Shown: piece after piece, positions 5,441-37,428 of the stretch
Numbering within the stretch: position 1 is the first letter of the stretch
How the letters are laid out: every line of letters begins with the position of its first letter
Assembly: GCA_036505875.1 (NCBI GenBank)
Contig: DASXSR010000288.1
Coordinates: 1-63,384, forward strand
Source: Blastocatellia bacterium
Lineage (GTDB): Bacteria; Acidobacteriota; Blastocatellia; UBA7656
Length of the DNA: 63,384 nucleotides
Direction of reading: 5' to 3'
Made by a program: the position numbers and the translations under genes
The notes under the pieces: model-generated
Databases searched by the model: none
What the model was told of the DNA's origin: nothing
What the model saw: the letters and a program-made list of their open reading frames with translations, nothing else

Positions 5441-5533
5441 AGTTTCGTAGTACCGCATTTATGCGGAAGTTTGTTGGCGTAATATTCTCGTCTCAACCCT
5501 ACGAACTTCCGCATAAATGCGGTACTACGAACC
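5441..5533. repeat. Long inverted repeat with a nested palindrome, lying between hisG and hisD
   Basis: Arms TTCGTAGTACCGCATTTATGCGGAAGTT (5443-5470) and AACTTCCGCATAAATGCGGTACTACGAA (about 5503-5530) are perfectly complementary over 28 bp, separated by a ~30-nt loop. Each arm carries its own palindrome, CCGCAT-TT-ATGCGG. The right arm overlaps the hisG stop codon. Confidence 0.9.
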
Positions 5534-6145
5534 TTTCAGAGAATTGATCAGCTCGCCGATAGCAGCCGCCTTCAGTTGGTAGCTTGCGCGGTTGACGATC
5601 AGACGCGCGGTTGATTCGGTGATAACTTCGAGCATCGCGAGTCCATTCTCACTGAGGGTCCTGCCGGTTTCCACCAGGTCAACGATGCAGTCGGCGAGTC
5701 CCAGAAGCGGCGCAAGCTCGACTGATCCGGACAGCTCGATCAGCTCGACCGGGATACCGCGAGCGCCAAAATGCTCGGCGGCGATTCGCGGATACTTTGT
5801 AGCTACCCTAACCACGCCCAGCCCATCCAGTGAGATGCCCGCCCGCGCGGCTACCGCGACGCGACAGCGGCCTATCTCGAGGGCGAGCGGCTGCAATACG
5901 TCGGCCTCGCTTTCGAGCAGCACGTCACGGCCTACTATTCCGCAATCTGCAATCCCATGCTCTACATACACCGGCACGTCCGACGGTTTAACGGGGATGA
6001 ACCGGCAACAGCCCGCCTCGTCTTCGAGAATCAGACGCCGCGACGAGAGCGCATCGCTCGACACTCGAAGCCCTGCGTGGGCAAGCAGCTCGAACGCTTC
6101 AGCCTGCAATCTTCCCTTAGCGATTGCGATCGTGAGGTCTGTCAA
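5525..6145 (-). CDS. hisG: ATP phosphoribosyltransferase, short form HisG. A TTG start at 6145 is preferred; the ORF is open up to 6238.
   Basis: The ORF contains LTIAIAKGRL, IPVKPSDVPVYVE.G.AD.GIVG.D and VATKYP. GAGGAG lies about 8 nt upstream of the TTG at 6145. The short length and the adjacent hisZ fit the HisG(S)/HisZ system. Confidence 0.85.
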   Translation of the reverse strand: MTDLTIAIAKGRLQAEAFELLAHAGLRVSSDALSSRRLILEDEAGCCRFIPVKPSDVPVYVEHGIADCGIVGRDVLLESEADVLQPLALEIGRCRVAVAARAGISLDGLGVVRVATKYPRIAAEHFGARGIPVELIELSGSVELAPLLGLADCIVDLVETGRTLSENGLAMLEVITESTARLIVNRASYQLKAAAIGELINSLKGS

Positions 6146-6228
6146 CTTTTCATCTCCTCGTCCGGATTGGCCGCCCCTGTCAGCATTGGAACTCGCTCCA
6201 TAATTGAACGGCGGGCACAGGGGCCGCC

Positions 6229-7344
6229 CTACAGGCACACTCGAATCCGCGCATCCTCAGCGCGGCGATTCATTGCCTCTTGAAAGAGCAGCGCAGGGTC
6301 GTCGTTCGAGAGTCGGGACGCTTCCCGTTGCGGCGCGCGAGTCGAGCCTAGGTCTCGTTTGCGCGCCACCAGCAAATCCGCCAGCGCTTCAAGATCAAGT
6401 ACAAAGCCTATCGCCGGCTCAGCCTTGCCGAACTTTGCAGTCAGGGCATCATACCGACCGCCGCTGCCGATCCTCGCGCCGGCCCCGGCAACATAGACTT
6501 TGAAAGTCAGACCGGTGTAATAGTCGAGCCTGGAAACGTCTCCAAGATCGATCTCAAAATGATCGGCGAGACCAAGCGACTCTATAACGCGCCACAAGCT
6601 TTCAAGATGATCCAAACCGTTGACCGAGCGCGGATTTGTAATAACTCTACGAGCTTTGTCCAGCGTGTCGCGTTTTCCGGCGAGTTGCGTCAACCGCACG
6701 AAGGCGCGGCGGTCACCGGCGGAAGCGTGAGGAGTCAGAAAGCGTTCGAGTTCCACGGCGTCGCGAGCATCGATCAGCTGCCGCATTTCATCTCGAGCTG
6801 ACGCATCGAGTGCGAGATTCGCCGCAACGCCGTTAAAGATCTCGACGTCGTTGAGCGTGATCACAAAGTCTTGGCCGAGACCCAGACGATCGAGGATCTC
6901 CGAAGCAATTACCAATAACTCGACGTCTGCCGCGAGCGAGTTTGCGCCGGTAAGCTCGCAGCCGATCTGTGTCAACTCTCTACGCCATTCCGCGCGCGTT
7001 CGCGGCTGTTGGCGGAACACCGACGCAGCGTAGCATAGACGCAAGGGCCTTTCGCTGGACGCAAACAGCGTTGCCGCCGCGCGCGCCACTGCCGAGGTGA
7101 CGTCGGGCCTCAAAGCCAGGAGCCGCCCGTCTGTGTCGGTGAACCTGAACGCGTGATGAGATTCCGAGTGGCCCATCGCTCGATCAAACAACGAATAGTA
7201 GTCCACTGTCGGCGTCGCGATCTCTTCGTAGGACCAGCCGTCAAGCACCGACATCGCGGTGTCTTCGATGCTGCGTCTCAGCCGTGCTTCGCGCCCGAAG
7301 TAATAACGAAGGCCGCCGGGAATTTGAGAGAGTGCCTCGGACAT
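6229..7344 (-). CDS. hisZ: ATP phosphoribosyltransferase regulatory subunit HisZ (HisRS paralogue). The ATG at 7344 is preferred; an alternative TTG lies at 7362.
   Basis: The ORF shows class II aaRS-like motifs (P.G.RYYF, LR.D.T..VAR, FR.E.PQ-like, GGRYD.L) but has no anticodon-binding domain. It is the first gene of the his operon. Confidence 0.85.
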   Translation of the reverse strand: MSEALSQIPGGLRYYFGREARLRRSIEDTAMSVLDGWSYEEIATPTVDYYSLFDRAMGHSESHHAFRFTDTDGRLLALRPDVTSAVARAAATLFASSERPLRLCYAASVFRQQPRTRAEWRRELTQIGCELTGANSLAADVELLVIASEILDRLGLGQDFVITLNDVEIFNGVAANLALDASARDEMRQLIDARDAVELERFLTPHASAGDRRAFVRLTQLAGKRDTLDKARRVITNPRSVNGLDHLESLWRVIESLGLADHFEIDLGDVSRLDYYTGLTFKVYVAGAGARIGSGGRYDALTAKFGKAEPAIGFVLDLEALADLLVARKRDLGSTRAPQREASRLSNDDPALLFQEAMNRRAEDARIRVCL

Positions 7345-7360
7345 AAAACTCCGATCTGTC

Positions 7361-7404
7361 AAAACGAAAACCCGCTGTCTGCGTTCGCGCTGGACAGCGG
7401 GTTT
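7361..7404 (-). terminator. Intrinsic terminator (attenuator) between the His leader ORF and hisZ
   Basis: The minus-strand RNA reads AAACCCGCUGUC-(13-nt loop)-GACAGCGGGUUU followed by UCGUUUUG. The 12-bp stem uses 7393-7404 and 7368-7379. It ends about 16 nt before the hisZ ATG. Confidence 0.75.
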
Positions 7405-10365: not shown

Positions 10366-10394
10366 TTGACTCACGACGTGTCGAATTACAGAAT
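10366..10394 (+). promoter_or_regulatory. Candidate sigma-70 promoter for the PDO-like gene
   Basis: TTGACT (10366-10371), a 17-nt spacer, then CAGAAT (10389-10394). GGAGGA at 10403-10408 precedes the ATG at 10420. This is pattern match only. Confidence 0.3.
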
Positions 10395-10419
10395 AATAGA
10401 ACGGAGGAGTGAGAGACCG

Positions 10420-11115
10420 ATGGGACTAATATCAGAAAACGACCAGGAAACAATCCGAAAACTCTTTGACGAAAACCTCGCAGGCGATGTCGATATCGTC
10501 ATGTTCACCGAGCGCCAGTCGCCCATCATCATTCCAGGGAAGCAGCCTTGCGAGTTGTGCGATCAAACGCAAGAATTGCTCGAAGAAGTTGCGTCGCTGT
10601 CTGACAAGCTGAAGCTGACCGTGCACGAAATCTCGAAGGCAAAGGAAGAGGCCTTCGCGCTGGGGATCAATCGCGTGCCGGCCTTCGTGTGCACCGGAGC
10701 GGCGCGCGGTCGAGTGCGTTTCTTCGGAATCCCATCAGGCTATGAGTTCTCTGCCATGCTCGCCGATCTTGTCGATGTGTCGAAAGGGACGACTGAACTT
10801 TCAGACGAGACGCGCGAATATCTCGGCACGCTGACCGAGGATGTGAACATCAAGGTCTTCACGACACCCACCTGACCGTATTGTCCATCAGCGGCCAGGT
10901 TGGCCCATCAGATGGCAGTCGAGAGCGAGCACGTAACGGCGGATGTTATCGAGGCCCAGGAATTCCCCGATCTCGCGCGACGATACGGCGTGCGCGGCGT
11001 GCCCAAGATAATCATCAACGAGACTACGGAGTTTGTGGGTGCGCTGCCCGAATCACAATATCTCGCGCAGCTTCGCGCCGCGGTCGAGAGTAACGGAGGA
11101 ACTGGCGTACAGTAG
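10420..11115 (+). CDS. Protein disulfide oxidoreductase / glutaredoxin-like two-domain protein (PDO, GlrX_arch-like) with an in-frame TGA at 10873-10875, read here as selenocysteine (U-P-Y-C)
   Basis: The track ORFs ending at 10875 and starting at 10900 are in the same frame. The joined product (231 codons) has an N-terminal unit with a CELC motif. Its C-terminal unit reads ...NIKVFTTPT-[TGA]-PYCPSAARLAHQMAVESEHVTADVIEAQEFPDLARRYGVRGVPKIIIN. This fits the pattern of the CPYC Trx-fold unit of PDO-type proteins, as recalled, with TGA exactly at the first Cys. A good SD precedes the ATG at 10420. Confidence 0.6.
10880..10919 (+). promoter_or_regulatory. Candidate bacterial SECIS hairpin
   Basis: The hairpin starts 5 nt after the TGA. 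Lower stem: 10880-10883 pairs with 10916-10919. Middle stem: CCAUC (10885-10889) pairs with GAUGG (10911-10915). An internal loop follows, then the upper stem GGCC(A) pairs with (U)GGCC. The apical loop A-GGU-U places GGU about 25 nt after the U of UGA. Confidence 0.45.
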
Positions 11116-11116
11116 C

Positions 11117-11671
11117 TTATTTCCAACTCACTCGATAGCGGCAGAATTCGCCGCCTTTGGCCCGGCACGTTTCTTCTACAATCTCGACGTCCGTTGCGCC
11201 GCACATCCCAAGAGCCCGCTTATACCAGCCGATGACCGTCAGGCAATCGGTAGCAGAGTAAGTCTCTGCCTCGTATGTAGTCATCACGCCTGAAGTTGGG
11301 CCGGTAGGTTTGTAATCGCGCCAACCCTTGTCGTAATACACGTGATATATCAACGGCGCGCGCAACATGAAGCCCTGTGGATTGCCGGGATCAAGATAAA
11401 ACTTCTGCACGCCGCTCAGGTTTTGCTCGGCCGAGGCAGCGCCCATTTCTTCAAACAATCGCGGATCGCCCTTGCCGATCACCCGAGCGATAGCTTCGTC
11501 CAGTCGCTGGCCGGTTTCAAAATGATACCAACCGGCGCTGTTGATCGGGTTGCGCAGAATAGCCTGGTCCGACGCGGAGAGATCTGACAGCACTTGTTCT
11601 ACCGCCTCGGTTCCAAAGCGCTCCTTTATGAACTCAAGCCGAGACTGCAAAATACCGCCTTTGATTTCCAT
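11117..11671 (-). CDS. DUF2378/V4R-like (heme-NO-binding-like) small-ligand-binding family protein. The ATG at 11671 is preferred; the ORF is open to 11713.
   Basis: The product begins MEIKGGILQSRLEFIKERFG and has WYHFE in the middle. It ends ...CRAKGGEFCRYRVSWK, which resembles the C..G...C.F...W signature of V4R/DUF2378 proteins. Confidence 0.5.
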   Translation of the reverse strand: MEIKGGILQSRLEFIKERFGTEAVEQVLSDLSASDQAILRNPINSAGWYHFETGQRLDEAIARVIGKGDPRLFEEMGAASAEQNLSGVQKFYLDPGNPQGFMLRAPLIYHVYYDKGWRDYKPTGPTSGVMTTYEAETYSATDCLTVIGWYKRALGMCGATDVEIVEETCRAKGGEFCRYRVSWK

Positions 11672-11800
11672 CTGATGAGCCTGTGTTTTTGTTGGGACTG
11701 GTCCTGCGGGCATTCGAATACTACAAGATGGACTCGCCGCACGTCCAGGACAGTGAAAGGGATTATTTGAGAGAGTCGCTACTTTCAGTCGCGCTTCGTC

Positions 11801-19015: not shown

Positions 19016-21214
19016 CTATGCCTTCGCGACGCGGCGGGCCAGGTTTGCCACCGCCGACGCGAGCGTGGCAGGTTCGATTGGCTTGGCGAGGTGACGCTCG
19101 AATCCCGCTTCGAGTACTCGCCTTCGGTCCTCGGTCGTAGCATATGCAGTGAGCGCGATGGCGGGGATCTTACCTCCGTGCTGCGGCGCCAATGCTCGGA
19201 CTCGTCTGATTAAGTCAAATCCATCCTCGATGGGCATGCCGATGTCGCTCACCAGCACATCGGGCATTGAGCCATTAATCGGGCCGGCGAGCGCCGCCAG
19301 CGCTTCTGACACCGAGGCTGCCGCGACAACCGATGCGCCACGCTGCTCGAGCATCGCGACAAGCAGCTCCCGGGCGTCGCTTTCGTCGTCGACGATCATG
19401 ACTCTCAACCCGGCGAGCTGTTTCGAATCATCCTTCAGGCGCTCGGGCACGCGGAGCGCCTTTAATGAACCGGTCGACACGGCAACGAGCGGAAATGACA
19501 CGGTGAAAGTAGCGCCCTTTCCGCGTCCCGCGCTTTCCGCTCGCACCTCGCCTCCGTGCATCTCGACAAGATGCCGCACGATCGCGAGTCCAAGGCCAAG
19601 CCCGCCGTGCATTCGAGCAAAGGTGCTGTCCGCTTGCCTGAAGCGGTCGAAGACGTAAGGCAAGAACTCCTCGGCGATGCCTTCACCGTTATCAGTCACC
19701 ATTATGCTGGCGGTTGATGGGTCCCTCTCGAGACTTACGGCGACCTCGCCCCCCGTGGGGGTAAACTTAATCGCATTAGAAAGCAGGTTCCAAGCCACTT
19801 GCTGCAAGCGATTTGGATCGCCGGACACGCGCGCCGAGCGATCGACTGATACGCGCAGCCTGATGTTCTTTGCATCGGCAGCGGGGCGTATCGCATCCAG
19901 AGCGGCTTCGATCACCGGCGCAAGCTCGATTGGTCTCGCCTCGAGCCTGAGCTTCCCCGATATTATTCGCGACACGTCCAACAGATCCTCGATGATCTGA
20001 GCCAGCGATTTCGTATTCCGTTCAATCGTATCCAGAGCCCGCGCGGAGCTTTGACTGTCCAGAGTATTTGTGCGCATCAGCTGGGCCCAGCCGAGTATCG
20101 AGTTCAAGGGTGTGCGCAATTCGTGCGAGACTGTGGCTAAGAACTCATCTTTGAGACGGTTGGCTGCCTCAGCTTCAGCCCGCGCCTGTTTCTCCCTGAG
20201 CAGCAAATCAGAACTGAGCCTGTGCGCTTGTTCAGCTTCGAGTCGGGCAGCTTTCTCGCTGAGCAGCAGCTTCTCCTTCTCCTCCTGGGCTTGCTTTCGC
20301 TCGGTCACTTCTACAAGCAAGTCGGAAGCGTGACGCCGCGCGTCGGCGTACAACCTTGCGTTCTCGTAAGCGGCCGCCAGTTGCCCGGTCAAAGTCATCG
20401 CCAGACGTTCGTCCGCTTCACTGAACTCGCCGCCCTCGAGCTTGTCGATAAGACACAACCAGCCGGCTGTCCTTTCCGGCAAAGCAATCGGAGCAGCGAG
20501 AGCCGATCTCCCGTCAACCGCTTCAGCAGCCGAAATACGAATCGGCTGATCTTCCGAGCGAGTAGCATCAAAGATTGGTTCGTAGCTCCCGCGGAACTTC
20601 CTGCCAGACGCAGCCTCGAGGCCGTCGATTCGTACGCGTGTGCTTCGAGCACCGAGAATGTCGCAGGCCGAGTCACAGAAGAGCTTCAGAAGAGCTTGCG
20701 GGTCGCGCTCAGCGGTCATCCGCTGTCCAAGCTCGACCAGCTTGCCCAGTCGCTGGAAATTTGCGTTCTCCAACGCAATGTTCTTTTCGTGCAGCAGCGC
20801 CGCCTGCTGTTTCACCTGCTCCGTCTTCTTGAAAAGCTCGACGAACACCGCCACCTTCGATTTCAAGGCGTCCGGGTCGAAAGGCTTGACTATGTAGTCG
20901 ACGGCCCCGAGCGAATAACCTCTCCAAAGGTCTTGTTTGTCGGCGCTGTCATATGCGGTCAGAAAAATAATAGGCACATCGCGAGTTTTCTTTCGCCCGC
21001 GAATCAACTCGGCCGTCTCGAGCCCGCTAATGCCCGGCATTCGGACGTCTAGCAGAACGACGGCCACGTCGTTGTGCAACAAGTAAAGCAAAGCCTCTTC
21101 GCCGGACGCAGCTCGAACCAGGTTGCGATCTTCGCCCTTAAGAATGGTCTCCAAGGCGAGCAGATTGCCCTTGTTGTCGTCGACCAGCAGAATATTTACA
21201 TTCGTACAATCCAT
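19016..21214 (-). CDS. Hybrid sensor histidine kinase: REC-GAF-coiled coil-HisKA-HATPase-REC
   Basis: The N-terminal REC reads ILLVDD...LDV.MP..SG and the H-box reads [16 protein letters not shown] boxes (LLSNAIKFT, DNGEGI, GGLGLGLAIV) and a C-terminal REC (VMIVDDE...SDIGMP) follow. The ATG at 21214 lies 5 nt after the cheR stop; an alternative TTG lies at 21226. Confidence 0.9.
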   Translation of the reverse strand: MDCTNVNILLVDDNKGNLLALETILKGEDRNLVRAASGEEALLYLLHNDVAVVLLDVRMPGISGLETAELIRGRKKTRDVPIIFLTAYDSADKQDLWRGYSLGAVDYIVKPFDPDALKSKVAVFVELFKKTEQVKQQAALLHEKNIALENANFQRLGKLVELGQRMTAERDPQALLKLFCDSACDILGARSTRVRIDGLEAASGRKFRGSYEPIFDATRSEDQPIRISAAEAVDGRSALAAPIALPERTAGWLCLIDKLEGGEFSEADERLAMTLTGQLAAAYENARLYADARRHASDLLVEVTERKQAQEEKEKLLLSEKAARLEAEQAHRLSSDLLLREKQARAEAEAANRLKDEFLATVSHELRTPLNSILGWAQLMRTNTLDSQSSARALDTIERNTKSLAQIIEDLLDVSRIISGKLRLEARPIELAPVIEAALDAIRPAADAKNIRLRVSVDRSARVSGDPNRLQQVAWNLLSNAIKFTPTGGEVAVSLERDPSTASIMVTDNGEGIAEEFLPYVFDRFRQADSTFARMHGGLGLGLAIVRHLVEMHGGEVRAESAGRGKGATFTVSFPLVAVSTGSLKALRVPERLKDDSKQLAGLRVMIVDDESDARELLVAMLEQRGASVVAAASVSEALAALAGPINGSMPDVLVSDIGMPIEDGFDLIRRVRALAPQHGGKIPAIALTAYATTEDRRRVLEAGFERHLAKPIEPATLASAVANLARRVAKA

Positions 21215-21219
21215 AACAT

Positions 21220-22083
21220 TTACCAATTTGATGCGGCCGCGCCTGGCATTCCTCGCTTTTGATAAAGACAGCTTTCCGTGTCAAGCGGGGCATAGCAATC
21301 TTCATGCGGCATCGACTCGATTGATTCAGCGGGACCCAGCGCGAGCACCCCAAAGCGGCTGAGGCTTTCGTAAATCAGTTTGTCGACCCGCTCCTTCAGT
21401 CTCTGATTGAAACTGCCGAGAATGCCTCGGCAAACGACAACTTGAAACTCGTTGAACGAGCCGTCAGTCGCAAGATTGTGTTCGGAAAAGACGATGTTCT
21501 TCTTGAGCGCCGGATCGATCAGCGCGCGTTTGCCTTTCTTACTGAAGTACTGCGATAACGACCACTTTCCGCCCGAGCTCCGGTAATTAGCGGCACACTT
21601 ATCGGGAAGCGAGAGCGAAAAGCTTCCGACACGCGCCTGACCTATCGCGCGGGTGCTCATATCAGTGGCGTAGATGCGTGACCGCTCATACAGGCCCTCT
21701 TCCTTGAGCAGAATCGCCATCGAGTAAACGTCCTCACCCGTCGAGCAGCCTGCGTGCCAGATGCGGACGAAAGGATAAGTCCTCAACTGCGGAACGACCT
21801 TCGTTCTGAAGGTATTGTAAAACGCGGGATCCGAGAACATCGAAAGATCGCGCAGAGAGAAGGCGCCCAGCAACCGCTCCAACAAAGCAGGCTCGCGAAG
21901 CACCTTCTCTTGAAAACGCGATATGGTCGGGATACGGCCCGCCAGCATGCGCTCGCGGATTCGGAGTCTCACCGCCCCGCGATCGTAATCCCGGAGATCG
22001 TAGCCGTAATAACGAAATACGGCTTCGAGCAACAAGTCGATTTCCAGTTCTTCCAGATTGTCGTTCGTCACGTTGTCACTCAT
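21220..22083 (-). CDS. cheR: CheR-type protein-glutamate O-methyltransferase
   Basis: The product has an N-terminal helical CheR domain ([20 protein letters not shown]), an SAM-binding motif ([18 protein letters not shown]) and IYATD. The start at 22083 (MSDNV) makes an ATGA overlap with the upstream kinase stop. Confidence 0.85.
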
Positions 22084-25000
22084 GCCCGCGCTGCTTTGCT
22101 GCCGTAGAGCCAGACCCGCAACATCGACAGCAGTTGGTCGATGTCCAGCGGTTTGGAAATGTAATCTGACGCTCCCGCCTCGATGCACTTGTCGCGGTCC
22201 GCTTTCATCGCCTTGGCCGTCAATGCGATGATCGGCAGCTCGGCGAGGCTCTCTATCTTGCGGATCGCCTGCATTGTCTCGTAGCCGTCCAACTCCGGCA
22301 TCATGATGTCCATCAACACTACGTCGATGCCTGGAATTTGCTGCAACAACTTTATGCCTTCGCGCCCGTCCTCCGCATAGAAGACTTCCATCTGATAGCT
22401 TTCCAGGGTGCTGGACAGCGCGAATATGTTGCGGACGTCGTCGTCCACAATCAGAACTTTCTTGCCCGCAAGCACCGGGTCTTGCCGCATCACCTCTTGA
22501 ATCATCCGGCGTTTGGGTTCCGGCATGTTGGCTTCCACGCGATGCAGGAAGAGTGCTGTTTCAGCAAGCAGTCTCTCGGGCGAATTGACCTCCTTTACCA
22601 CTATCGCGTCGGCGACTTGCCTCAACTGGCTCTCTTCCTTTTCGGTGAGGTCCTTGCCGGTGTACACGATTATTGGAAGGTCGTTTTGACCAAGCTCCCT
22701 CTGAATCTTATCGATCAATTCGAAGCCGCTGATGTCAGGCAATCTTAGATCCAGAACCATGCAATCGAATTGCTGGGCCTTGAGCGCTTCGAGTGCCTCG
22801 GACGCCGTAGCAACGCCGACCGTATCAACGTCTCCGCCGCCGATCAGCTCGATGATGCTCATCCGTTGGGCGTCATCGTCCTCCACAACAAGCAGCCGCT
22901 TCACGTCTCGCTGTGAAAACGCGGCGATCTGATCGAACGCTTCTGCGAGTTGCTCCCGAGAGACCGGCTTTTGCAAGTGCATAAACGCGCCGAACGCGCG
23001 AGGATGACGCGCCTGCTCGTACGCGGTAATCACGTGCACCGGAATGTGGCTCGTTTGCGGATCGTGCTTTAAACGATCGAGCACAGTCCAGCCCTCCTGA
23101 TCCGGCAGTTTGATATCCAGCGTTATCGCATCGGGCTTGTACTTGCGCGCGAGCGTCAACGCGACATCACCGCGCGCCGCAACCAGCCCTTTGAAACCCT
23201 TCTCGTGCGCGAGATCGAGGAGGATCTGCGCGAACAAGGCATCATCTTCTACGATCAGCACGATTCGCTCTCCGGGCGCGATGTTAGCGCGATCGTCGGC
23301 GATCTCTATTACTTCGCTGTATTCGGCAACCGGAAACGGACTGACGCTCGGAGCATTCCGCGCAAGTACAGCGGCAAGGCCATAGCTCGCTTGCGATGAG
23401 ACCCGCCCCGAGGTCTTGTGGGCGCGCGGCAAATAGAGGGTGAACGTGCTGCCTTCTCCGGCCGCGCTGGCGACTCGGATCTCGCCTCCGAGCAGTCGCG
23501 CAATTTCACGGCTGATCGACAGTCCCAGCCCTGTGCCGCCGTACTTGCGACTGGTCGTGCCATCGGCCTGCTGGAACGGTTCGAAGATTATCTGCTGCTT
23601 GTCTGCCGGAATCCCGATCCCGGTATCCGTCACCGAGAAGGCCACAACCAGGTCTGCCAGGTTGAGACTGTCCATTGCGAAGTGGCCGCGTTTTTCGACC
23701 GTCTTTATTTGAAGCGAGACTCGCCCGCGGTCGGTGAACTTGAAGGCGTTTGACAGCAGATTTTTGAGGACCTGTTGCAACCGCTTCTGGTCCGTCGAGA
23801 GCGTTGCAGGCATGTTGGGCTCCATTTCAATTGCGAAGTCCAATCCCTTGTCCTGCGCAATCTGATGGAAGCTGCGATTCATCTGTTCCATTACATCGAT
23901 GAATGGAACATCGGCAGTTTCGATCGCCAACATCCCCGACTCGATCTTCGACAGATCCAGAATGTCGTTGATCAGTGAAAGCAGATCGTTGCCCGAAGAG
24001 TGAATCGTCTCAGCGAACTGGACCTGTTTCGGCGTTAGCGTAGACTCCGTGTTCTCCGCGAGCTGACGTGACAGGATCAACATGCTGTTGAGCGGAGTCC
24101 TCAACTCGTGAGACATGTTGGCGAGGAATTCAGACTTGTATTTCGAAGTGAGCGCGAGCTGTTCGGCTTTTTCTTCCATCGCCCAGCGCGCCTCCTCGAC
24201 CTCGCGGTTCTTGGCTTCGACTTCCGACTTTTGCTGAGCGAGAAGCGTTGCTTTCTCCTTCAGCTCTTCGTTTGTGTTTTGCAGCTCTTCCTGTTGGCTG
24301 CGCAGTCGCTCCTCCGACTCGCGGAGGCTCAGGGCTTGCTGTTCGAGCCGCTCGTTGGTCTTCTTCAGCTCATCCTGTTGGCTCTGCAGTTCTGTGGCCA
24401 GCGACTGTGACTGGATCAACAGCCGCTCGGTTCGCGTGTTCGCCTCAATCGTGTTCAGCACGATTCCGATGCTTTCGGTCAGCGTATCCAGGAAGGTTAC
24501 GTGAACCTCACTGAAACGATTGAAGGAAGCGAGTTCGATGACCGCCTTTACTTCCTCCTCGAACAACACCGGCAAGACGATGATGTTGAGCGGCGGGGCC
24601 TCGCCCAACCCCGAGCTGACAAAGATGTAATCGTTGGGGACGTTGGTCAGCATTATGCGCTTCTTCTCCAACACGCACTGTCCGACGATCCCCTCTCCGG
24701 TCCTAAACTCGTTCGAGAGGTTCTTGCGATTCGAGTAAGCATAACCGCCGAGCAGCCTCATCAGCGTTTGCCCTTCCGCCTCGGGCTGGTTTACATAGAA
24801 CACGCCTTGTTGCGCATCGACCAGGGGCGCCAGTTCCGAAAGGATCATGTTGGCGACCGTTGTCATGTCGCGCTGGCCTTGAAGCATTCCTGTGAACCGC
24901 GCGAGGTTGGTCTTGAGCCAATCTTGCTCGGTGTTCTTCTGGGTGGTGTCTTTGAGGTTGCGGATCATCTCGTTGATGTTGTCTTTGAGGGCCGCGACCT

Positions 25001-28000
25001 CGCCTTGCGCCTCGACTGCAATCGAGCGGGTGAGGTCCCCCTGCGTGACCGCCGTCGCGACCTCGGCGATGGCTCGCACCTGGTTTGTAAGGTTCGCTGC
25101 GAGCTGGTTCACGTTGTCGGTCAAGTCTCTCCAGGTGCCGTAAGCACCCGGCACGTTCGCTTGCCCGCCGAGCTTGCCTTCGACGCCGACCTCGCGCGCC
25201 ACGGTCGTCACCTGATCTGCGAAAGTCGCCAGGGTGTCGGTCATGGCGTTGATTGTGTTGGCCAACTCGGCGATCTCGCCTTTCGATTCGATGGTCAGCT
25301 TACGGTTCAATTCACCGTTTGCGACTGCCGTCACGACGCGGGCGATGCCGCGCACCTGGCCGGTTAAGTTGCCGGCCATGAAGTTGACGTTGTCGGTCAG
25401 GTCCTTCCAGGTGCCGGCGACGCCCTTCACGTCAGCCTGTCCGCCAAGCTTGCCTTCGGTTCCAACTTCGCGCGCCACGCGCGTCACTTCAGACGCAAAC
25501 GAGTTGAGCTGGTCGACCATAACGTTGATCGTGTTCTTCAGTTCGAGAATCTCTCCCTTAACGTCGACGGTTATCTTCTTCGACAGGTCGCCGTTGGCGA
25601 CGGCCGTGGTCACCTCGGCGATGTTACGAACCTGCGCGGTCAGGTTGCTGGCCATGAAATTCACGTTGTCGGTCAGGTCCTTCCACGTGCCGGCGACGCC
25701 GCGCACGTCGGCCTGTCCGCCGAGCTTGCCTTCGGTGCCGACCTCGCGCGCCACGCGAGTGACTTCCGACGCGAACGCGTTGAGCTGGTCGACCATGACG
25801 TTGATCACTTCTTTGATCTGAAGAATCTCGCCGCGCACGTCTACGGTAATCTTCTGCGTTAGGTCGCCGTTTGCAATGGCGGTTGCAACCTTAGACATAT
25901 CGCGAAGCTGAACAGTGAGGTTGCCGGCCATCAGATTCACGTTGTCAGTCAAGTCCTTCCATGTGCCGGCGACGCCCGCGACCTGCGCCTGCCCACCGAG
26001 TTTGCCTTCGGTTCCGACTTCGCGCGCCACACGAGTGACTTCGGAAGCGAACGCGTTAAGCTGGTCCACCATTCGGTTGATCGTGTTCTTCAACTCAAGA
26101 ATTTCGCCCTTAACATCGACGGTGATCTTCTTCGACAGATCGCCGTTGGCGACCGCCGTTGTGACCTCTGCGATGTTTCTCACCTGAGCGGTAAGGTTGC
26201 CGGCCATGAAGTTCACGCTGTCGGTCAGGTCCTTCCACGTGCCGGCGACTCCGGGCACTTGAGCTTGCCCGCCGAGCTTGCCTTCAGTTCCAACCTCGCG
26301 CGCCACGCGCGTCACTTCGGATGCAAACGAGTTGAGCTGATCGACCATTCGATTGATCGTGTTCTTTAGTTCTAGAATCTCACCCTTTACGTCGACTGTG
26401 ATTTTCTTCGAAAGGTCGCCGTTAGCCACAGCGGTTGTGACCTCGGCGATGTTGCGGACCTGTCCGGTTAAGTTGCCGGCCATCGAGTTGACGCTGTCGG
26501 TCAGGTCCTTCCAGGTTCCGCCCACACCGCGCACGTCGGCCTGGCCGCCAAGCTTGCCCTCAGTTCCGACCTCTCTCGCCACGCGTGTTACTTCGGAAGC
26601 GAACGAGTTGAGCTGATCAACCATTCGATTGATTGTGTTCTTGAGCTCAAGAATCTCGCCCTTAACGTCTACGGTTATTTTCTTCGACAGGTCGCCGTTG
26701 GCGACGGCCGTTGTCACTTCGGCGATGTTTCTCACTTGGCCTGTCAGGTTCCCGGCCATCGAGTTAACGTTATCGGTCAAGTCTTTCCACGTACCTGCGA
26801 CATCAGGCACGATAGCTTGACCGCCGAGCTTGCCTTCCGTTCCTACTTCCCTCGCAACGCGTGTTACTTCCGACGCGAACGCGTTAAGCTGGTCGACCAT
26901 GACGTTGATGGTGTTCTTCAATTCAAGAATCTCGCCTTTCACGTCGACGGTGATTTTCTTAGAAAGGTCGCCTTTGGCCACCGCGGTAGTCACATCAGCG
27001 ATGTTGCGCACTTGAGCGGTAAGGTTCCCGGCCATCGAGTTGACGCTGTCGGTCAGATCCTTCCACGTGCCACCCAACCCACGCACGTCGGCTTGGCCGC
27101 CGAGCTTCCCTTCGGTCCCGACCTCACGAGCGACGCGGGTGACCTCGGAAGCGAACGAGTTAAGCTGATCGACCATAACGTTGATCGTGTTCTTCAGCTC
27201 GAGGATTTCGCCTCTCACGTCAACGGTAATCTTCTTTGAAAGGTCGCCCTTTGCGACTGCGGTTGTCACCTCGGCGATGTTTCTCACCTGAGCCGTCAGG
27301 TTGCCGGCCATGAAGTTGACGTTGTCGGTCAGGTCTTTCCAAGTGCCGGCGACTCCGGGCACTTCCGCTTGCCCGCCGAGCTTGCCTTCGGTTCCGACTT
27401 CTCTCGCAACGCGCGTAACTTCCGACGCAAACGAGTTGAGCTGATCGACCATCCGGTTGATCGTGTTCTTCAGCTCAAGAATCTCGCCCTTCACGTCGAC
27501 CGTGATCTTCTTTGAGAGGTCGCCATTAGCCACGGCGGTCGTGACCTCGGCAATGTTTCTCACCTGCCCGGTCAAGTTTCCGGCCATCGAGTTAACGTTA
27601 TCGGTGAGATCTTTCCAGGTTCCTGCGACTCCACGAACTTGAGCCTGTCCGCCGAGCTTGCCTTCGGTACCGACTTCTCTGGCGACGCGCGTCACCTCCG
27701 AAGCGAATGAGTTGAGCTGGTCGACCATTCGATTGATCGTGTTCTTCAGCTCGAGGATTTCGCCCTTCACGTCGACCGTGATTTTCTTCGACAGGTCGCC
27801 GTTGGCCACGGCGGTCGTGACTTCGGCGATGTTCCTCACTTGCCCGGTGAGGTTGCCGGCCATCGAGTTCACGTTGTCAGTCAGGTCCTTCCACGTGCCG
27901 GCAACATCCGGCACAACGGCTTGGCCGCCGAGCTTGCCTTCAGTTCCCACTTCTCTTGCGACGCGAGTGACTTCGGAAGCGAACGCGTTGAGCTGGTCAA

Positions 28001-29039
28001 CCATCGTGTTGATTGTGTTCTTGAGCTCGAGGATTTCACCTCGCACGTCGACGGTGACCTTCTTCGACAGGTCGCCGCGGGCTACCGCGGTTGTCACTTC
28101 TGCGATGTTGCGCACTTGAGCAGTCAGGTTGCCGGCCATCGAGTTGACGCTGTCGGTCAGGTCCTTCCAACTGCCCGCGACGCCTTTCACTTTCGCCTCG
28201 CCGCCCAACTTGCCTTCGGTTCCAACTTCTCTAGCAACGCGCGTGACCTCCGAGGCGAACGACCCAAGCTGTCCGACCATAGCATTGACCAGCTTGACCG
28301 ATCGCAGGAAATCACCTCTCAGCGGTCTGCCGTCTACTTCCAACGCCATGGTCTGAGAGAGATCCCCGTTTGCAACCGCGCCAATCACGCGGGCCATCTC
28401 GGTCGTCGGTCGAACCATATCGTCAATGAGAGTGTTGACCGAGTCGATCAAGCTTCGCCACGAGCCGTCAGCCGAGGGCAGCATCGCCCGCTGAGCGATC
28501 TTGCCTTCTTTGCCGACCACTCGGCTCACGCGTTCGAGTTCTCTCGTCAGCCTGTCATTACGGCCGATCACTTCATTAAGAGTGTCGGCAATCTTGCCGG
28601 GAATACCGACCCAATCGTCAGGCAGGCGCACCGAGAAGTCCCCCTTCTTAAGGGCGACCACAGTCTTCAGCAATTCTCTGTCGTTAGGCGATTTGGTGAC
28701 CGCGCCGTCAGCCGCTTGTTTAGCTTTGGGCCTGGCCATGATATCGACGATAGAATTGATTGACTTGAATGATTTCGCCCAGGAACCCTTCGCGGCCGGC
28801 AGCTTCCCGTTTCTTGTGATCTTTTGATCCTTACTTGCGGCTTTGCTTACGCGGTCAAGCTCGCTCGCAAGCTTTGAGTTGAGAGTCGCTACATCATTAA
28901 AGGCTCTCGCGATCTCGCGCTCGACGCCGGTGGACTTCTCAGAAAGCCGCGCGGAGAAGTCGCCTTTCTTTAAAGCCGTCAGCGCCTGCAGCAATTGGCT
29001 GCTGTCTATAGTATTGGTGATCGCTTCCGGATTTGGCAT
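22080..29039 (-). CDS. Giant soluble poly-HAMP hybrid sensor kinase: N-terminal HAMP-like units, about 12 x 92-aa HAMP repeats, GAF, coiled coil, HisKA-HATPase and 3 x REC
   Basis: The ORF has no N-terminal TM segment. The repeated unit is [19 protein letters not shown]...[58 protein letters not shown]. An H-box ([14 protein letters not shown]), N/G boxes and three D-containing REC domains follow. The start at 29039 (MPNPE, preceded by AAGGGGG) is preferred over 29072. Confidence 0.9.
24950..28250. repeat. Tandem 276-bp (92-codon) coding repeat, about 12 copies, inside the poly-HAMP kinase gene
   Basis: I counted 92 aa from one EVTRVAREV to the next. The first unit starts at about aa 275 of the ORF (about nt 28250). 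The twelfth, most divergent unit ends near nt 24950. Confidence 0.85.
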
Positions 29040-29209
29040 TGAACCCCCTTTTGGTATCTCACGACACACCACACCTCTTCGGCTGGCGAATGAATCGCGG
29101 GCCGTCCAGTTCGATAAGGTCTATGCGAACGGTCTTTCGGTGGCAAGAGACGAAACTACCGCTTAAGTAAGGACTGGTAGAAATTTGCGACACCGCTAAG
29201 GGTATCGAG

Positions 29210-33482: not shown

Positions 33483-33995
33483 CATCCCTGCTCTTGGTTT
33501 TGGCTGTTTGCCTTTTTAGTTGCTGTGCCTCAAGCCGAGGAGGTGCGTTTCCGGCGGGCGCGGCATTCGGGTCTTGCCCGGTTTGCCATATGAGAGTCAA
33601 AGCGGCTGACGATTGGACGTCGGAAATCTACTATCGCGATGGGACAAAGCTGATGTTCGAGTCGCCGGCGGATATGATGGCGTTTTACACAGAACCGCGT
33701 CGCTATGACGTCGATGCGAGTCATAAGGATTTGAGCAGGGTTGAGAAGGTGACGGTGAAGGATTACCAATCCAGGCGAGTGATCGATGCCGGGGAGGCGA
33801 GCTTCGTCTATAACAGTAACGTCGACGGACCGATGGGGCCGGACTTCATTCCGTTCGGCAGCAGCGAAGCGGCGGAAGCCTTTCTTGCGGCGAACAGCGG
33901 AACGTTGACCTCATTCGGCGATGTAACCGGGGACATGGTTCGAGAGGTGCGAAAGTAAGGGGTAGTCGGAACGATACTTGAGGAACAAGGCTCCG

Positions 33996-36383
33996 ATGGC
34001 AAGAGAAAAAGTTCTTTTCAAAGTTGTCGCCACATTGTTTGCGGTGTTGCTCGCAACGTCCCTCGCGGTTGCCCAGGGGAGCGAGCGTGTAGTTAAGGCG
34101 AAGGGCTACGCATCAGTGGACGGCGTGCGCCCAGGCGATAAATTCAAAATAGCAGTCGCGCTTGAGATCGGGGAAGGCTACCACATCAACGCGCACCATC
34201 CCTCGCTCGACTTCCTGATCCCAACGTCGGTCAAGTTTGAATCGGCGCCGGGAATCAACATCGCCGAGGAAAAATACCCCGCGCCGAAACACCGTCGGTT
34301 CGAGTTCGCCCCCGACACCGAACTCGCAGTCAACGAAGGAACTTTGCTGATAACCGCCGACGCTGAGGCAGACAAGACGCTGAAGCCAGGAACAGCAACC
34401 ATTCGCGCGTTCGTGACCGTACAGGCGTGCAATGATTCCCAGTGCCTCGAGCCAACTGATTTGCCTGTCGAGATACCGATCAAGCTCGTGACGGCGAAGC
34501 AGGGAGTTAAGCCGGCGAATGCTGAGTTGTTCGCACAATCAGCGGCGACGCCAACTGAAACTGACCCGACCGCTGTTCAAGTATCCAGCGCGCTTTTGCA
34601 GTATCGAGGAAGTTCACCATCGCCTAATAAGATCGCCGAATTGATTTCCACACAGGGCCTTGCGCTCACCCTTTTGTTTGTCTTTTTGTCGGGTCTATTG
34701 CTCAACACGACGCCGTGCGTGTATCCCATCATTCCGATCACGATCGGCTTCTTCGTCAATCAGAGCGCGTCGCAACAAGGCAAGCCAAGCCTCAGCCGCA
34801 CGTTTTCAATGTCGTCGATGTATGTGTTGGGCATGGCAATAACTTACTCGATGCTGGGCGTGATAGCGGCGAAGTCGGGGAGCTTGTTCGGCGCCGCGTT
34901 GCAGAACCCGTTCGTGCTGGTCGGGATTGCAGCGCTGATGCTCGCGTTGGCGCTGTCGATGTTTGGCGTTTACGAGTTCAAATTGCCCGACGCGTTGAAT
35001 CGGTTCGCCACAAGCAGTACTCAATCGACGGGCGGGATTGTCGGGTCGCTCGTCATGGGGCTTACGATGGGCATCGTCGCCGCGCCGTGCATTGGGCCGT
35101 TTGTTCTTGCTTTGCTGGTGTTTGTTGGCGAGAAAGGCGACGCGGTTTACGGCTTCTTCATGTTCTTCGTGCTGGCGCTTGGGCTGGGGCTCCCTTATCT
35201 GGTTTTGGGAACGTTTTCGGGTGCGATCAAATCGCTTCCGCGATCCGGGTTGTGGATGGTCACGGTGCGTAAACTGTTCGGGTTGGTGCTGATCGGCATG
35301 GCGCTGTATTTCCTGATGCCGCTGATGGGAAGGTACGCAACCTACGTGTTCGTCACGTTCTTCGCTTTGTCGGCGCTGTACCTGATCTTGTGGGAATCAG
35401 GAAGGGCCAAGCCAAAACAGTTCGCGTGGGTGCTCCGCGCGGTCGGGGTCGGCGCCGCTGTTGTTGCGGTGATGATGTCGATGCCGAAGAAGATCGAAAC
35501 TCAAATCCCCTGGCAACCGTACGGCGAGCAAGCCTTAGTCGAAGCCAAGCAGCAAGGCAAAGGCGTCATCATCGATACTTTCGCTGACTGGTGTATCCCG
35601 TGCAAGGAGCTCGACAACTTGACTTTCACGGACGCGCCGGTGAAAAAGGAAGCCGAGAGATTCATCACGCTCAAACTCAATCTGACGAGCAACGACCCCA
35701 ACTCGGAGGCTGGCCGTGCGAGACAACGATTTGCGATACGCGGTGTGCCGACAGTGCTGTTCCTCGACGCCACCGGCCGCGAGCTTTCGGACTTGCGGCT
35801 AGAAGGATTCGAGAAGCCTTCTGCGTTTCTCGATAGAATGAAGCGAGTCGAGACTCCGGCAGCCGCCGGCGCGATGCTGGCGAAGAACATCCCCGCCGGC
35901 AAGTCACCGATTGCAGACGCGACTGCGGGCGGAAGTACCGCAAGCGTCAGCGAGCGCGAGGGGTCAGAACCGGCGCCGGCAGTCAGCTTGAGCCTGCTGA
36001 GCGGCGGAGCACTCAAGCTCGAATCGCTTCGAGGCAGAGTTGTGTTGATAGACTTCTGGGCGACGTGGTGTTTGCCGTGCATCTCCGAGATTCCGATGTT
36101 CAACCAGTTGAAGAAGGACTACCAGGCACGTGGGCTTGAAGTGATGGCGATTTCGCTTGACGAAGAAGGCGCAGCTAAGGTGAAGCCGTTCTTGAAAGCG
36201 TACCCGATGGACTACACTCAAGTCATTGGGGATCAGAGCACTGCGGCCTCATTCAAGGTCTCCGACTCATCGCTGCCGGTAACCCTCCTGATCGATAAGC
36301 AGGGTCGAATCCGTTTTCGGCATGTCGGCATCACGACGAAAGAAGCGCTCGATACGCAGGTAAGTCAGTTATTCAACGAGTGA
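33996..36383 (+). CDS. dsbD: DsbD-family thiol:disulfide interchange protein with two C-terminal thioredoxin-fold domains
   Basis: The product has a signal peptide and a DsbD-alpha-like domain (VQACNDSQCLEP). The CcdA-type membrane core carries TPCVYP and APCIGP. A Trx domain (WCIPCK) and an additional TlpA/ResA-like domain (FWATWCLPC) follow. Confidence 0.85.
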   Translation: MAREKVLFKVVATLFAVLLATSLAVAQGSERVVKAKGYASVDGVRPGDKFKIAVALEIGEGYHINAHHPSLDFLIPTSVKFESAPGINIAEEKYPAPKHRRFEFAPDTELAVNEGTLLITADAEADKTLKPGTATIRAFVTVQACNDSQCLEPTDLPVEIPIKLVTAKQGVKPANAELFAQSAATPTETDPTAVQVSSALLQYRGSSPSPNKIAELISTQGLALTLLFVFLSGLLLNTTPCVYPIIPITIGFFVNQSASQQGKPSLSRTFSMSSMYVLGMAITYSMLGVIAAKSGSLFGAALQNPFVLVGIAALMLALALSMFGVYEFKLPDALNRFATSSTQSTGGIVGSLVMGLTMGIVAAPCIGPFVLALLVFVGEKGDAVYGFFMFFVLALGLGLPYLVLGTFSGAIKSLPRSGLWMVTVRKLFGLVLIGMALYFLMPLMGRYATYVFVTFFALSALYLILWESGRAKPKQFAWVLRAVGVGAAVVAVMMSMPKKIETQIPWQPYGEQALVEAKQQGKGVIIDTFADWCIPCKELDNLTFTDAPVKKEAERFITLKLNLTSNDPNSEAGRARQRFAIRGVPTVLFLDATGRELSDLRLEGFEKPSAFLDRMKRVETPAAAGAMLAKNIPAGKSPIADATAGGSTASVSEREGSEPAPAVSLSLLSGGALKLESLRGRVVLIDFWATWCLPCISEIPMFNQLKKDYQARGLEVMAISLDEEGAAKVKPFLKAYPMDYTQVIGDQSTAASFKVSDSSLPVTLLIDKQGRIRFRHVGITTKEALDTQVSQLFNE

Positions 36384-36489: not shown

Positions 36490-36903
36490 GTGAAAGCCGT
36501 GATGGATACGAACGTCCTGATTGCGGCTCTCCGTTCCAGACAGGGCGCTTCTTTTGAGATTCTCCGCCGTTTGCGCTTCGGCGAATGGACGGCTGTGTTG
36601 AGCAACCACCTGCTGTACGAATACGAAGAGATCGTGAAGCGGCAAGCGCCAGAGCTTAGGCTGACCTTCGATGATGTGGATCAACTGCTGAACGCTATTT
36701 GTGCTCGTGGGGAAGAGTGCCTCTTGTCACATGGCTGGCAACCGATTCTAAGCGATCCCGACGATGAGCCACTCGTCCAACTTGCAATCGAATCCGATGC
36801 GCTTCGAATCGTCAGCCATAATGTGCGTCACCTGCGGCCTGCGGTGCGGTTGGGAGTTGAACTCTTGCGTCCTCGCGAGTTTCTTGACAAACTGAGATTA
36901 TGA
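36490..36903 (+). CDS. PIN-domain toxin (PIN_3/TIGR00305-like)
   Basis: GTG start preceded by GAGGAGG. The N-terminus reads AVMDTNVLIAAL. Acidic residues lie further along (DPDDEPL..LA). Confidence 0.75.
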   Translation: MKAVMDTNVLIAALRSRQGASFEILRRLRFGEWTAVLSNHLLYEYEEIVKRQAPELRLTFDDVDQLLNAICARGEECLLSHGWQPILSDPDDEPLVQLAIESDALRIVSHNVRHLRPAVRLGVELLRPREFLDKLRL

Positions 36904-37136
36904 AAACGTTACAAGCGCAGGTGCCCGACATCTTGGTCGAGGAAGTTAAGGAGCTGGCTGCAAAGCAAAACGCCAGCATCGACCAAATCGTGTCTCTTGC
37001 GTTGGCCGCCCAGGTTTCTGCTTGGCGCACGCGGGAGAGCATCGCCTCTCGCGCCAACCGTGTAGACTGGCAAAGGGTAGACCAAATTCTCGCCCGCGTA
37101 CCGGACGCACCCCCGCAGCCAGGTGATGAACTCTGA
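36900..37136 (+). CDS. Ribbon-helix-helix-type antitoxin (Arc/CopG/HicB-C-like)
   Basis: 78-aa ORF with an ATGA overlap with the PIN gene. The N-terminus MKTLQAQVPDILVEEVKELAAKQNASIDQIVSLAL has a beta-strand/helix/helix RHH pattern. Confidence 0.6.
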   Translation: MKTLQAQVPDILVEEVKELAAKQNASIDQIVSLALAAQVSAWRTRESIASRANRVDWQRVDQILARVPDAPPQPGDEL

Positions 37137-37185
37137 GCATTCCGTCATGGGCTTCGAGATGGAGATTACGATAGTTAGTTGATGA

Positions 37186-37428
37186 CTGCGTGATGCGAGC
37201 CGCTCAGAAAGTGGCGGAAGGAAGTACGGCGCCGTGGGAGCAGATGAAAAAGAATTGGAGCGTTTAACACTCGCGCATTCACCGCACTTTCAAGCACTGT
37301 TGGAGAAGTCTCGGCGAACTATCAGGCAAGGCAAAGGGCTGTCGCACGAAGAGTTTTGGAAAACTGTTTCCGCGCGCCGCCCCAAACGCAGTAGCTTGAG
37401 TCGAGAGAAGTGTAATGCCTATAAGTAA
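37186..37428 (+). pseudogene. Possible remnant of an antitoxin-like gene (C-terminal tail only)
   Basis: The open frame has no credible start. Its DEKELERLTLAHSPHFQALLEKSRRTIRQGKGLSHEEFWK resembles C-terminal extensions seen on some Phd/YefM-type antitoxins. No N-terminal domain is present. Confidence 0.25.

Follow-up and report, generated by a model that had tools for sequence, protein, structure and literature searches.

A probable selenocysteine-containing protein disulfide oxidoreductase gene, interrupted by an in-frame UGA codon, in a Blastocatellia bacterium

The locus and its reading frame

The stretch of DNA analysed here, referred to below as the window, comprises positions 1 to 63,384 of contig DASXSR010000288.1 in the Blastocatellia bacterium assembly GCA_036505875.1 (Acidobacteriota), and the gene in question lies at positions 10420-11115 of its forward strand. 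It would encode a selenocysteine (Sec)-containing protein disulfide oxidoreductase (PDO), with an internal TGA serving as the Sec codon and a hairpin of the type of a bacterial selenocysteine insertion sequence (SECIS) following it (Table 1). A single frame runs from the ATG at 10420 through the TGA at 10873-10875 to the TAG at 11113-11115, comprising 231 codons and the stop, and the TTG at 10900 is in frame with ATG 10420. The first-pass annotation of the window, made from the sequence alone, had stated that the open reading frame (ORF) ending at 10875 and the one starting at 10900 share a frame with the TGA between them, and that the read-through product of 231 codons carries CELC in its N-terminal unit and VFTTPT-[TGA] in its C-terminal unit. 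Translation to the TAG bears out both statements, the C-terminal unit reading VFTTPT-[TGA]-PYCPSAARLAHQMAVESE...GVPKIIIN.

Table 1. Sequence features of the predicted Sec-containing PDO gene and its upstream region (positions in the window).
Feature	Position	Strand	Basis or remark
Weak sigma-70-like site	10366-10394	+	Upstream of ATG 10420
Shine-Dalgarno-like GGAGGAG	10403-10409	+	Read from the sequence; 10 nt 5' of ATG 10420
Complete coding sequence, predicted Sec-containing PDO	10420-11115	+	Translation; 231 residues and TAG
CxxC of the N-terminal unit, C44-E-L-C47	10549-10560	+	Aligned with CQYC of Pyrococcus PDO; invariant in 56 homologues
UGA codon 152, read here as Sec	10873-10875	+	Alignment with invariant Cys152 of the Cys homologues
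U-P-Y-C motif, residues 152-155	10873-10884	+	Sec at the first Cys position
SECIS-type hairpin inside the ORF	10880-10919	+	RNAalifold consensus
Codon for Pro195 of the invariant G-V-P-K motif	11002-11004	+	G193, V194, P195 and K196 invariant in 56 homologues
True stop TAG	11113-11115	+	Sequence and translation

Protein family and fold

With U swapped for C in the query, the read-through product matches the NCBIfam model TIGR02187.2 (PDO_seleno_TRX, "protein disulfide oxidoreductase") at 254.3 bits against a cutoff of 185, over profile positions 2-207 of 209. Its residues 1-222 align at full length to the PDOs of Pyrococcus horikoshii and Pyrococcus furiosus (1J08, E 6e-46; 1A8L, E 1e-44), and in this alignment CELC is placed opposite CQYC and the TGA opposite the first Cys of CPYC. 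Each unit has a CxxC redox motif, CELC at residues 44-47 and U-P-Y-C at residues 152-155 with Sec for the first Cys. The residues C44, C47, C152 and C155, as well as the G-V-P-K motif, are invariant among 56 full-length homologues. Pro195 in this motif is at what we take to be the cis-proline position of thioredoxin folds, the cis conformation being presumed from general knowledge of the fold. The TGA had been said to fall exactly on the nucleophilic first Cys of CPYC, and an alignment of homologues had been named as the way to check it; Cys152 is present in all 56 full-length homologues, and the 1J08/1A8L alignment agrees.

The AlphaFold model of the Cys orthologue P0001, which is 81% identical, was taken to stand in for the window protein. 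This model has a mean predicted local distance difference test (pLDDT) score of 92.8, and its template modelling (TM) scores are 0.86-0.90 to 1A8L, 1J08 and 2AYT and approximately 0.73-0.81 to the AhpF N-terminal domains. In thioredoxin folds the nucleophilic residue usually sits between a strand and a helix, and residue 152 of the model is indeed found between strand 142-148 and helix 155-168, just before the helix. Judged by sequence and model, 10420-11115 encodes a protein disulfide oxidoreductase that is cytoplasmic, has two thioredoxin folds and belongs to the PDO / AhpF-N-terminal-domain type; the corresponding activity is predicted.

Conservation of the in-frame TGA

Among the best 120 clusters considered in the protein search, the full-length Cys proteins have 215-260 residues and are 49-81% identical to the query. 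More than half of the clusters (63 of 120) are truncated at the same place: they comprise 149-151 amino acids, are 76-93% identical and cover the first 65% of the query only. An identical 151-residue N-terminal product is encoded on seven independent metagenome contigs. In the four of these that are shown, the gene neighbours match those of the window as far as each contig reaches, and gene callers have placed a 151-aa ORF and behind it another short one, which in three cases has 67 aa. It had been anticipated that automated annotation would divide the gene, and this is what both the ORF calls and the truncated clusters display.

At the DNA level, a first scan covering one genome per species yielded 27 loci readable at codon 152. 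The codon is TGA in 24 of them, from Blastocatellia, Marinacidobacterales and Chloroflexota, and TGC or TGT in three more distant loci, from Solibacteraceae, Anaerolineaceae and a haloarchaeon. Another Blastocatellia locus (L025) is too frameshifted for codon 152 to be read. The pattern of the second scan was T-P-x-TGA-P-[YHF]-C-P, 19 free bases and H-[QK]-[ML]-A, so that the hairpin region was unconstrained, and at least 119 further loci with TGA at the same codon were recovered. According to their taxon labels these comprise approximately 75 Chloroflexota, 26 Acidobacteriota, 8 Bacillota and a few Gemmatimonadota, Ignavibacteria and Zixibacteria. A Cys codon (TGC/TGT) occupies position 152 in L021, L026, L028, L031, L032, L034 and L035, and there are closer Cys orthologues as well, P0001 to P0006. 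The Cys homologues are single proteins of 225-231 residues.

The region after the TGA evolves as coding sequence. In 20 Blastocatellia-type sequences the ratio of nonsynonymous to synonymous substitution rates (dN/dS) amounts to 0.115 before the TGA and 0.075 after it (74 codons downstream; dS approximately 1.5), and the variable sites downstream are distributed over the three codon positions as 33/22/71, that is, mostly at the third. The third-position variation together with the dN/dS of 0.075 therefore means that translation in this frame continues past the TGA; a sequencing error or a pseudogene is excluded.

Several observations concern the third-party assemblies themselves. Two contigs of the Anaerolineae metagenome-assembled genome (MAG) JBBQIE01 (L245 and L263) carry TGA-form copies identical over the 54 nt compared, hairpin included, which reflects either a duplication or redundancy in assembly or binning. 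The MAGs of L001, L007 and L012, and likewise of L179 and L180, are labelled "uncultured Clostridia", "cyanobacterium" or "Puniceispirillum", while their genes are 76-84% identical to the Blastocatellia form or of Acidobacteria/Chloroflexota type; these taxonomic labels look unreliable. In L025 (3001-3682) and L234 (7167-7811), both from long-read MAGs of the MFD series, frameshifts break the gene and the protein is conserved across the frames, and these are probably homopolymer errors rather than signs of pseudogenes.

The hairpin downstream of the TGA

The hairpin at 10880-10919 is the minimum-free-energy (MFE) structure after the TGA and starts 5 nt past it. It has a lower stem (10880-10885 with 10914-10919), an upper stem of 5 bp (10893-10897 with 10901-10905) and an apical loop of 3 nt, GGU, at 10898-10900. 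The loop is thus 23-25 nt past the UGA, or at nt 26-28 when counted from the U of the UGA. In the bSECISearch model, put forward by Zhang and Gladyshev in 2005, the apical loop of a bacterial SECIS is said to lie approximately 16-37 nt downstream of the UGA, and the loop of the window falls within this range.

The significance of the hairpin comes from comparison with relatives, namely from covariation, synonymous suppression and the contrast between Sec and Cys forms. Across 25 Sec forms the RNAalifold consensus is the hairpin 10880-10919. An alignment of 49 sequences of the window's hairpin class, the classes being defined by folding, has 95.4% of its cells paired, as opposed to 12-54% when the partners are slid by 1-3 columns. 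The basal pair of the upper stem (21-33) is GC in 37 of these sequences, AU in 8, GU in 2 and CG in 1, and the loop G in column 26 is invariant. A second hairpin class of 40 sequences has 98.8% of its cells paired, with pair 17-30 being GC in 32, AU in 6 and CG in 1. Codon choice is constrained as well: in 20 Blastocatellia sequences the codon entropy of the hairpin codons +6 to +10 is 0.37 bits vs. 1.46 bits for comparable codons outside the hairpin (p = 2e-4), and individual hairpin codons are nearly frozen (Ala GCC in 20 of 20, Arg AGG in 17 of 17).

For the comparison of Sec and Cys forms, one flanking pattern served for both sets: the scan free of hairpin constraints gave 115 unique Sec forms, and metagenomes gave 116 unique Cys forms (TGY). 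Over bases 10-42 the MFE is -10.15 kcal/mol for the Sec forms and -7.09 kcal/mol for the Cys forms (p = 2.7e-15), and the z score relative to synonymous-codon resampling is -1.0 and 0.0, respectively (p = 2e-12). The imperfect hairpin with a GGU loop about 25 nt downstream, as described in the first-pass annotation, is accordingly recovered by MFE folding, RNAalifold consensus, covariation and synonymous suppression alike, and the search it recommended for other Sec orthologues sharing the hairpin led to the 49 sequences of the window's class. On these alignments, the hairpin is maintained by selection and is of the SECIS type; its binding by SelB is a prediction.

Hairpin registers and possible Sec/Cys interconversion

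The 115 unique Sec forms fall into at least four hairpin registers within one orthologous family, and the stem sequences of these registers are unrelated (Table 2). In the four main classes the loops are at nt 20-29 from the U of the UGA and all contain G, as the first or second base of the loop and at a distance of 21-28 nt from that U. Some of the register differences (L167-L285) consist of paired synonymous third-position changes, e.g., CCG...CUC vs. CCC...CUG.

Table 2. Main hairpin registers among the unique Sec forms.
Register (i+j)	n	Stem	Loop
47	40	GCGAGC/GCUCGC	CGUGNU
54 (class of the window)	31	GGCCA/UGGCC	GGU
46	16	CCGGGC/GCCUGG	Mixed, e.g., CGUGC
45	16	GAGGGC/GUCCUC, often extended	GGUC

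Some Cys orthologues have kept traces of the structure. The closest one, with TGC and 81% identity (L031, 1312-1380), retains an intact GGCC-AGGCU-GGCC hairpin, and in L034 and L035 the basal pair of the hairpin is broken. From their sequences, these three seem to form a series in which Sec was recently converted to Cys and the relic of the SECIS is decaying.

Selenocysteine machinery in related genomes

A degenerate scan for the active-site motif of SelA returned at least 120 genomes, with approximately 15 Acidobacteriota and many Chloroflexota among the matches listed. Full-length SelA proteins, 40-44% identical to SelA of E. coli, are encoded in Chloracidobacterium and Pyrinomonadaceae MAGs (Blastocatellia); SelB is not adjacent to SelA at the Blastocatellia loci, and neither SelB nor SelD nor tRNA-Sec was located in the analysis. 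The genomes with SelA and those with the TGA gene are both samples, with about 120 matches listed for each, and their overlap amounts to one assembly, the Acidobacteriota MAG CAVONV01, where SelA (L086) occurs together with the TGA gene (L234). The occurrence of SelA in relatives supports the selenoprotein reading without settling the matter for the window's own genome.

Interpretation and alternative readings

We consider it highly probable, on grounds of sequence comparison, that 10420-11115 is a single Sec-PDO gene in which UGA codon 152 is decoded as Sec with the help of the SECIS hairpin that follows. What the comparison shows is one continuous frame, a conserved UGA, Cys homologues, purifying selection downstream of the UGA, covariation in the hairpin, and the fold and family of the product. 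The central proposal of the first-pass annotation, one selenoprotein gene in which Sec takes the place of the nucleophilic Cys of CPYC and a SECIS hairpin follows, stands on the conserved TGA, the Cys homologues, the dN/dS of 0.075 and the covariation. Sec insertion in this organism, binding by SelB and the physiological partners of the PDO are what we infer from it.

Several points weigh on the other side. None of selA, selB, selD and tRNA-Sec is found within the 63-kb window. CAVONV01 is the sole case among the matches listed of SelA and the TGA gene in the same assembly; it is a long-read MAG, and its gene contains two apparent frameshifts of a sort often met in such MAGs. The folding energy of the hairpin on its own is unremarkable (z = -1.09; 27 of 200 shuffled sequences fold at least as well). 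The sequences behind the hairpin statistics are phylogenetically related and the p-values given above are therefore inflated. Finally, Rfam gives no match over the whole window at the gathering threshold, nor over 10840-10960 at E up to 10.

If the ribosome stopped at the UGA, two polypeptides could be made without selenium, one of 151 residues and a C-terminal unit initiated internally at TTG 10900 or ATG 10909 (HQM). The calls of 151-aa and 67-aa ORFs in several metagenome contigs and the 63 truncated clusters are what such a split protein would give, and none of the Sec machinery is encoded in the window. Against this, the stretch P-Y/H-C-P-x-A-A-R-L-A-H-Q after the UGA is kept as amino acids with synonymous variation in 25 sequences, which were retrieved via peptide motifs from elsewhere in the protein except for one motif at HQMAVESE. 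In addition, a C-terminal unit starting at Met164 would lose strand beta-1 and the entire CxxC centre, no ribosome-binding site precedes 10900 or 10909, and the Cys homologues are single proteins of 225-231 residues. A split protein is thus very unlikely.

Equally improbable is in-frame read-through with another amino acid (e.g., Cys, Trp or Gly), inserted by a suppressor or near-cognate tRNA while the hairpin does no more than slow termination. Unusual tRNAs with a UCA anticodon have been described in some bacteria, and ARAGORN detected no tRNA-Sec in the window or in approximately 57 fetched loci, those around SelA included, both of which count in favour of this explanation. The position of the hairpin and its G-containing apical loop are, however, typical of SelB-dependent bacterial SECIS elements, a UGA in place of a redox Cys is the classic Sec/Cys pair, SelA is encoded in these lineages and, in one case, in an assembly with the TGA gene, and the family has already been listed among selenoproteins. 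TGA is moreover the commonest ordinary stop in the window, ending 28 of its 57 ORFs, and UGA is therefore not reassigned; a genome-wide reassignment of UGA was rejected on this stop-codon usage. A pseudogene, a recent nonsense mutation or a sequencing error at TGC/TGT would need no more than a single base change, and a Cys orthologue at 81% identity (P0001) exists, but the recurrence of the TGA at more than 140 loci, which belong to independent assemblies and several phyla, the identical N-terminal product on seven independent metagenome contigs, the low downstream dN/dS and the hairpin covariation already refute this explanation, which we regard as practically eliminated.

For the Sec-PDO reading the following mechanism can be proposed. 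The mRNA hairpin 5 nt past the UGA would recruit SelB with Sec-tRNA(Sec) to the ribosome, and Sec would be inserted at codon 152 in place of chain termination. Of the two redox sites of the product, CELC would belong to the N-terminal unit; the other, a U-P-Y-C selenenylsulfide centre, would lie at the N-terminal end of the first helix in the C-terminal unit, with Sec152 acting as the attacking nucleophile in thiol-disulfide exchange. By analogy to archaeal PDO and AhpF, electrons would probably be shuttled from an enzyme of thioredoxin-reductase type to peroxiredoxins or protein disulfides. No AhpC, reductase or other partner gene is adjacent to the PDO gene in the window or in the metagenome contigs.

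In annotation, a single coding sequence with Sec at codon 152 should take the place of the two ORFs, and the same applies to more than 100 species genomes and dozens of clusters that carry the 151-residue fragment as a "thioredoxin family protein" or "AhpF". The gene implies use of selenium by this acidobacterium, and Blastocatellia and many Chloroflexota are added to the hosts of a biochemically uncharacterised selenoprotein family. A wider picture may be sketched tentatively, and we hold it to be slightly less probable than its opposite: Sec PDO could be among the selenoproteins that are most widespread in Acidobacteriota and Chloroflexota of soil and sediment, aerobic Blastocatellia included, fragmented almost everywhere in public annotation, with its SECIS remodelled into at least four registers and with recently converted Cys orthologues that carry relic hairpins. 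If so, the family would offer a natural series for studying the co-evolution of SECIS and SelB and the interconversion of Sec and Cys.

Genomic surroundings

Otherwise the window has the content of an ordinary chromosome, with recA and mnmA, a his operon and two-component systems among its genes. An ORF of 198 residues without a Pfam match, at 11117-11713 (-), lies in convergent orientation to the selenoprotein gene, its end 2 nt away from the TAG; the same neighbour, called as 184 aa, is also found beside the gene on the metagenome contigs L406 and L408. The his operon at 5525-7362 (-) includes a short HisG and a HisRS-like gene (6229-7362), which is probably hisZ in the arrangement typical of the short-form ATP phosphoribosyltransferase.

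A hybrid sensor kinase of 2330 residues is encoded at 22080-29072 (-), with approximately 12 tandem HAMP domains, GAF, HisKA/HATPase and three receiver domains, and is followed by a CheR methyltransferase (21220-22188 (-)) and another hybrid kinase, this one with two receiver domains (19016-21226 (-)). Another thiol-redox protein is found at 33978-36383 (+). It is an 801-residue fusion of DsbD-type transmembrane electron-transfer, Thioredoxin_7 and AhpC/TSA (redoxin) domains, has no in-frame TGA and adjoins NosL and mnmA. A PIN-domain (VapC-like) ORF at 36490-36903 (+) is followed by approximately 560 bp without a convincing gene. A second selenoprotein in the window was considered and rejected: the only TGA-joined ORF pair clear of other genes, at 36909-37418 (-), is without convincing coding character.

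Comparison with known systems

A Sec-containing PDO had been expected to be an unusual selenoprotein, and this expectation did not hold. Reviews credit the Sec-PDO selenoprotein family to Kryukov and Gladyshev (2004), so that it has been known since 2004, other hosts have been reported, namely Carboxydothermus hydrogenoformans and Symbiobacterium thermophilum (Zhang et al., 2006) and Asgard archaea (in a 2026 review), and the NCBIfam model itself is named PDO_seleno_TRX. With this family the window protein shares TIGR02187 membership, the U-x-x-C motif type, Sec for the first redox Cys and the existence of Cys homologues. It differs in its host, a Blastocatellia-like soil acidobacterium, the named members being from Carboxydothermus, Symbiobacterium and Asgard archaea. 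In the reference sequence ABB15282.1 Sec presumably sits in the same unit; the sampled Bacillota MAGs have the TGA at codon 152. Neither a new kind of selenoprotein nor a new recoding mechanism is revealed. What is new here is a member of Blastocatellia type, evidence that among Acidobacteriota and Chloroflexota the Sec form is both very common and usually annotated as fragments, and the presence of several hairpin registers in one family.

Among structurally characterised proteins, the PDOs of Pyrococcus (1A8L, 1J08) and Aquifex aeolicus (2AYT) have the same length, the same build of two thioredoxin folds and a CxxC in each unit, their CPYC corresponding to U-P-Y-C. They contain Cys rather than Sec, come from hyperthermophilic hosts and are about 36% identical, and their reductase partner and substrates are known biochemically. 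The AhpF N-terminal domain (1ZYN, 1HYU, 5H29) also has a double thioredoxin fold with a redox-active CxxC in the second unit. In AhpF, however, this domain is fused to a flavoprotein reductase and is without the CxxC of the first unit, whereas the window protein is stand-alone and has both sites.

The hairpin had been likened to characterised bacterial SECIS elements such as that of E. coli fdhF, and the two layouts are indeed similar. Both are imperfect extended hairpins inside the ORF, a few nt past the UGA, with a small GGU-containing apical loop. In fdhF the UGA is followed after 3 nt by the hairpin, whose loop occupies nt 22-25 from the U, whereas in the window the hairpin starts after 5 nt and the loop is at nt 26-28. 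The fdhF element has no sequence similarity to the hairpin of the window, with its 5-bp upper stem and 3-nt loop.

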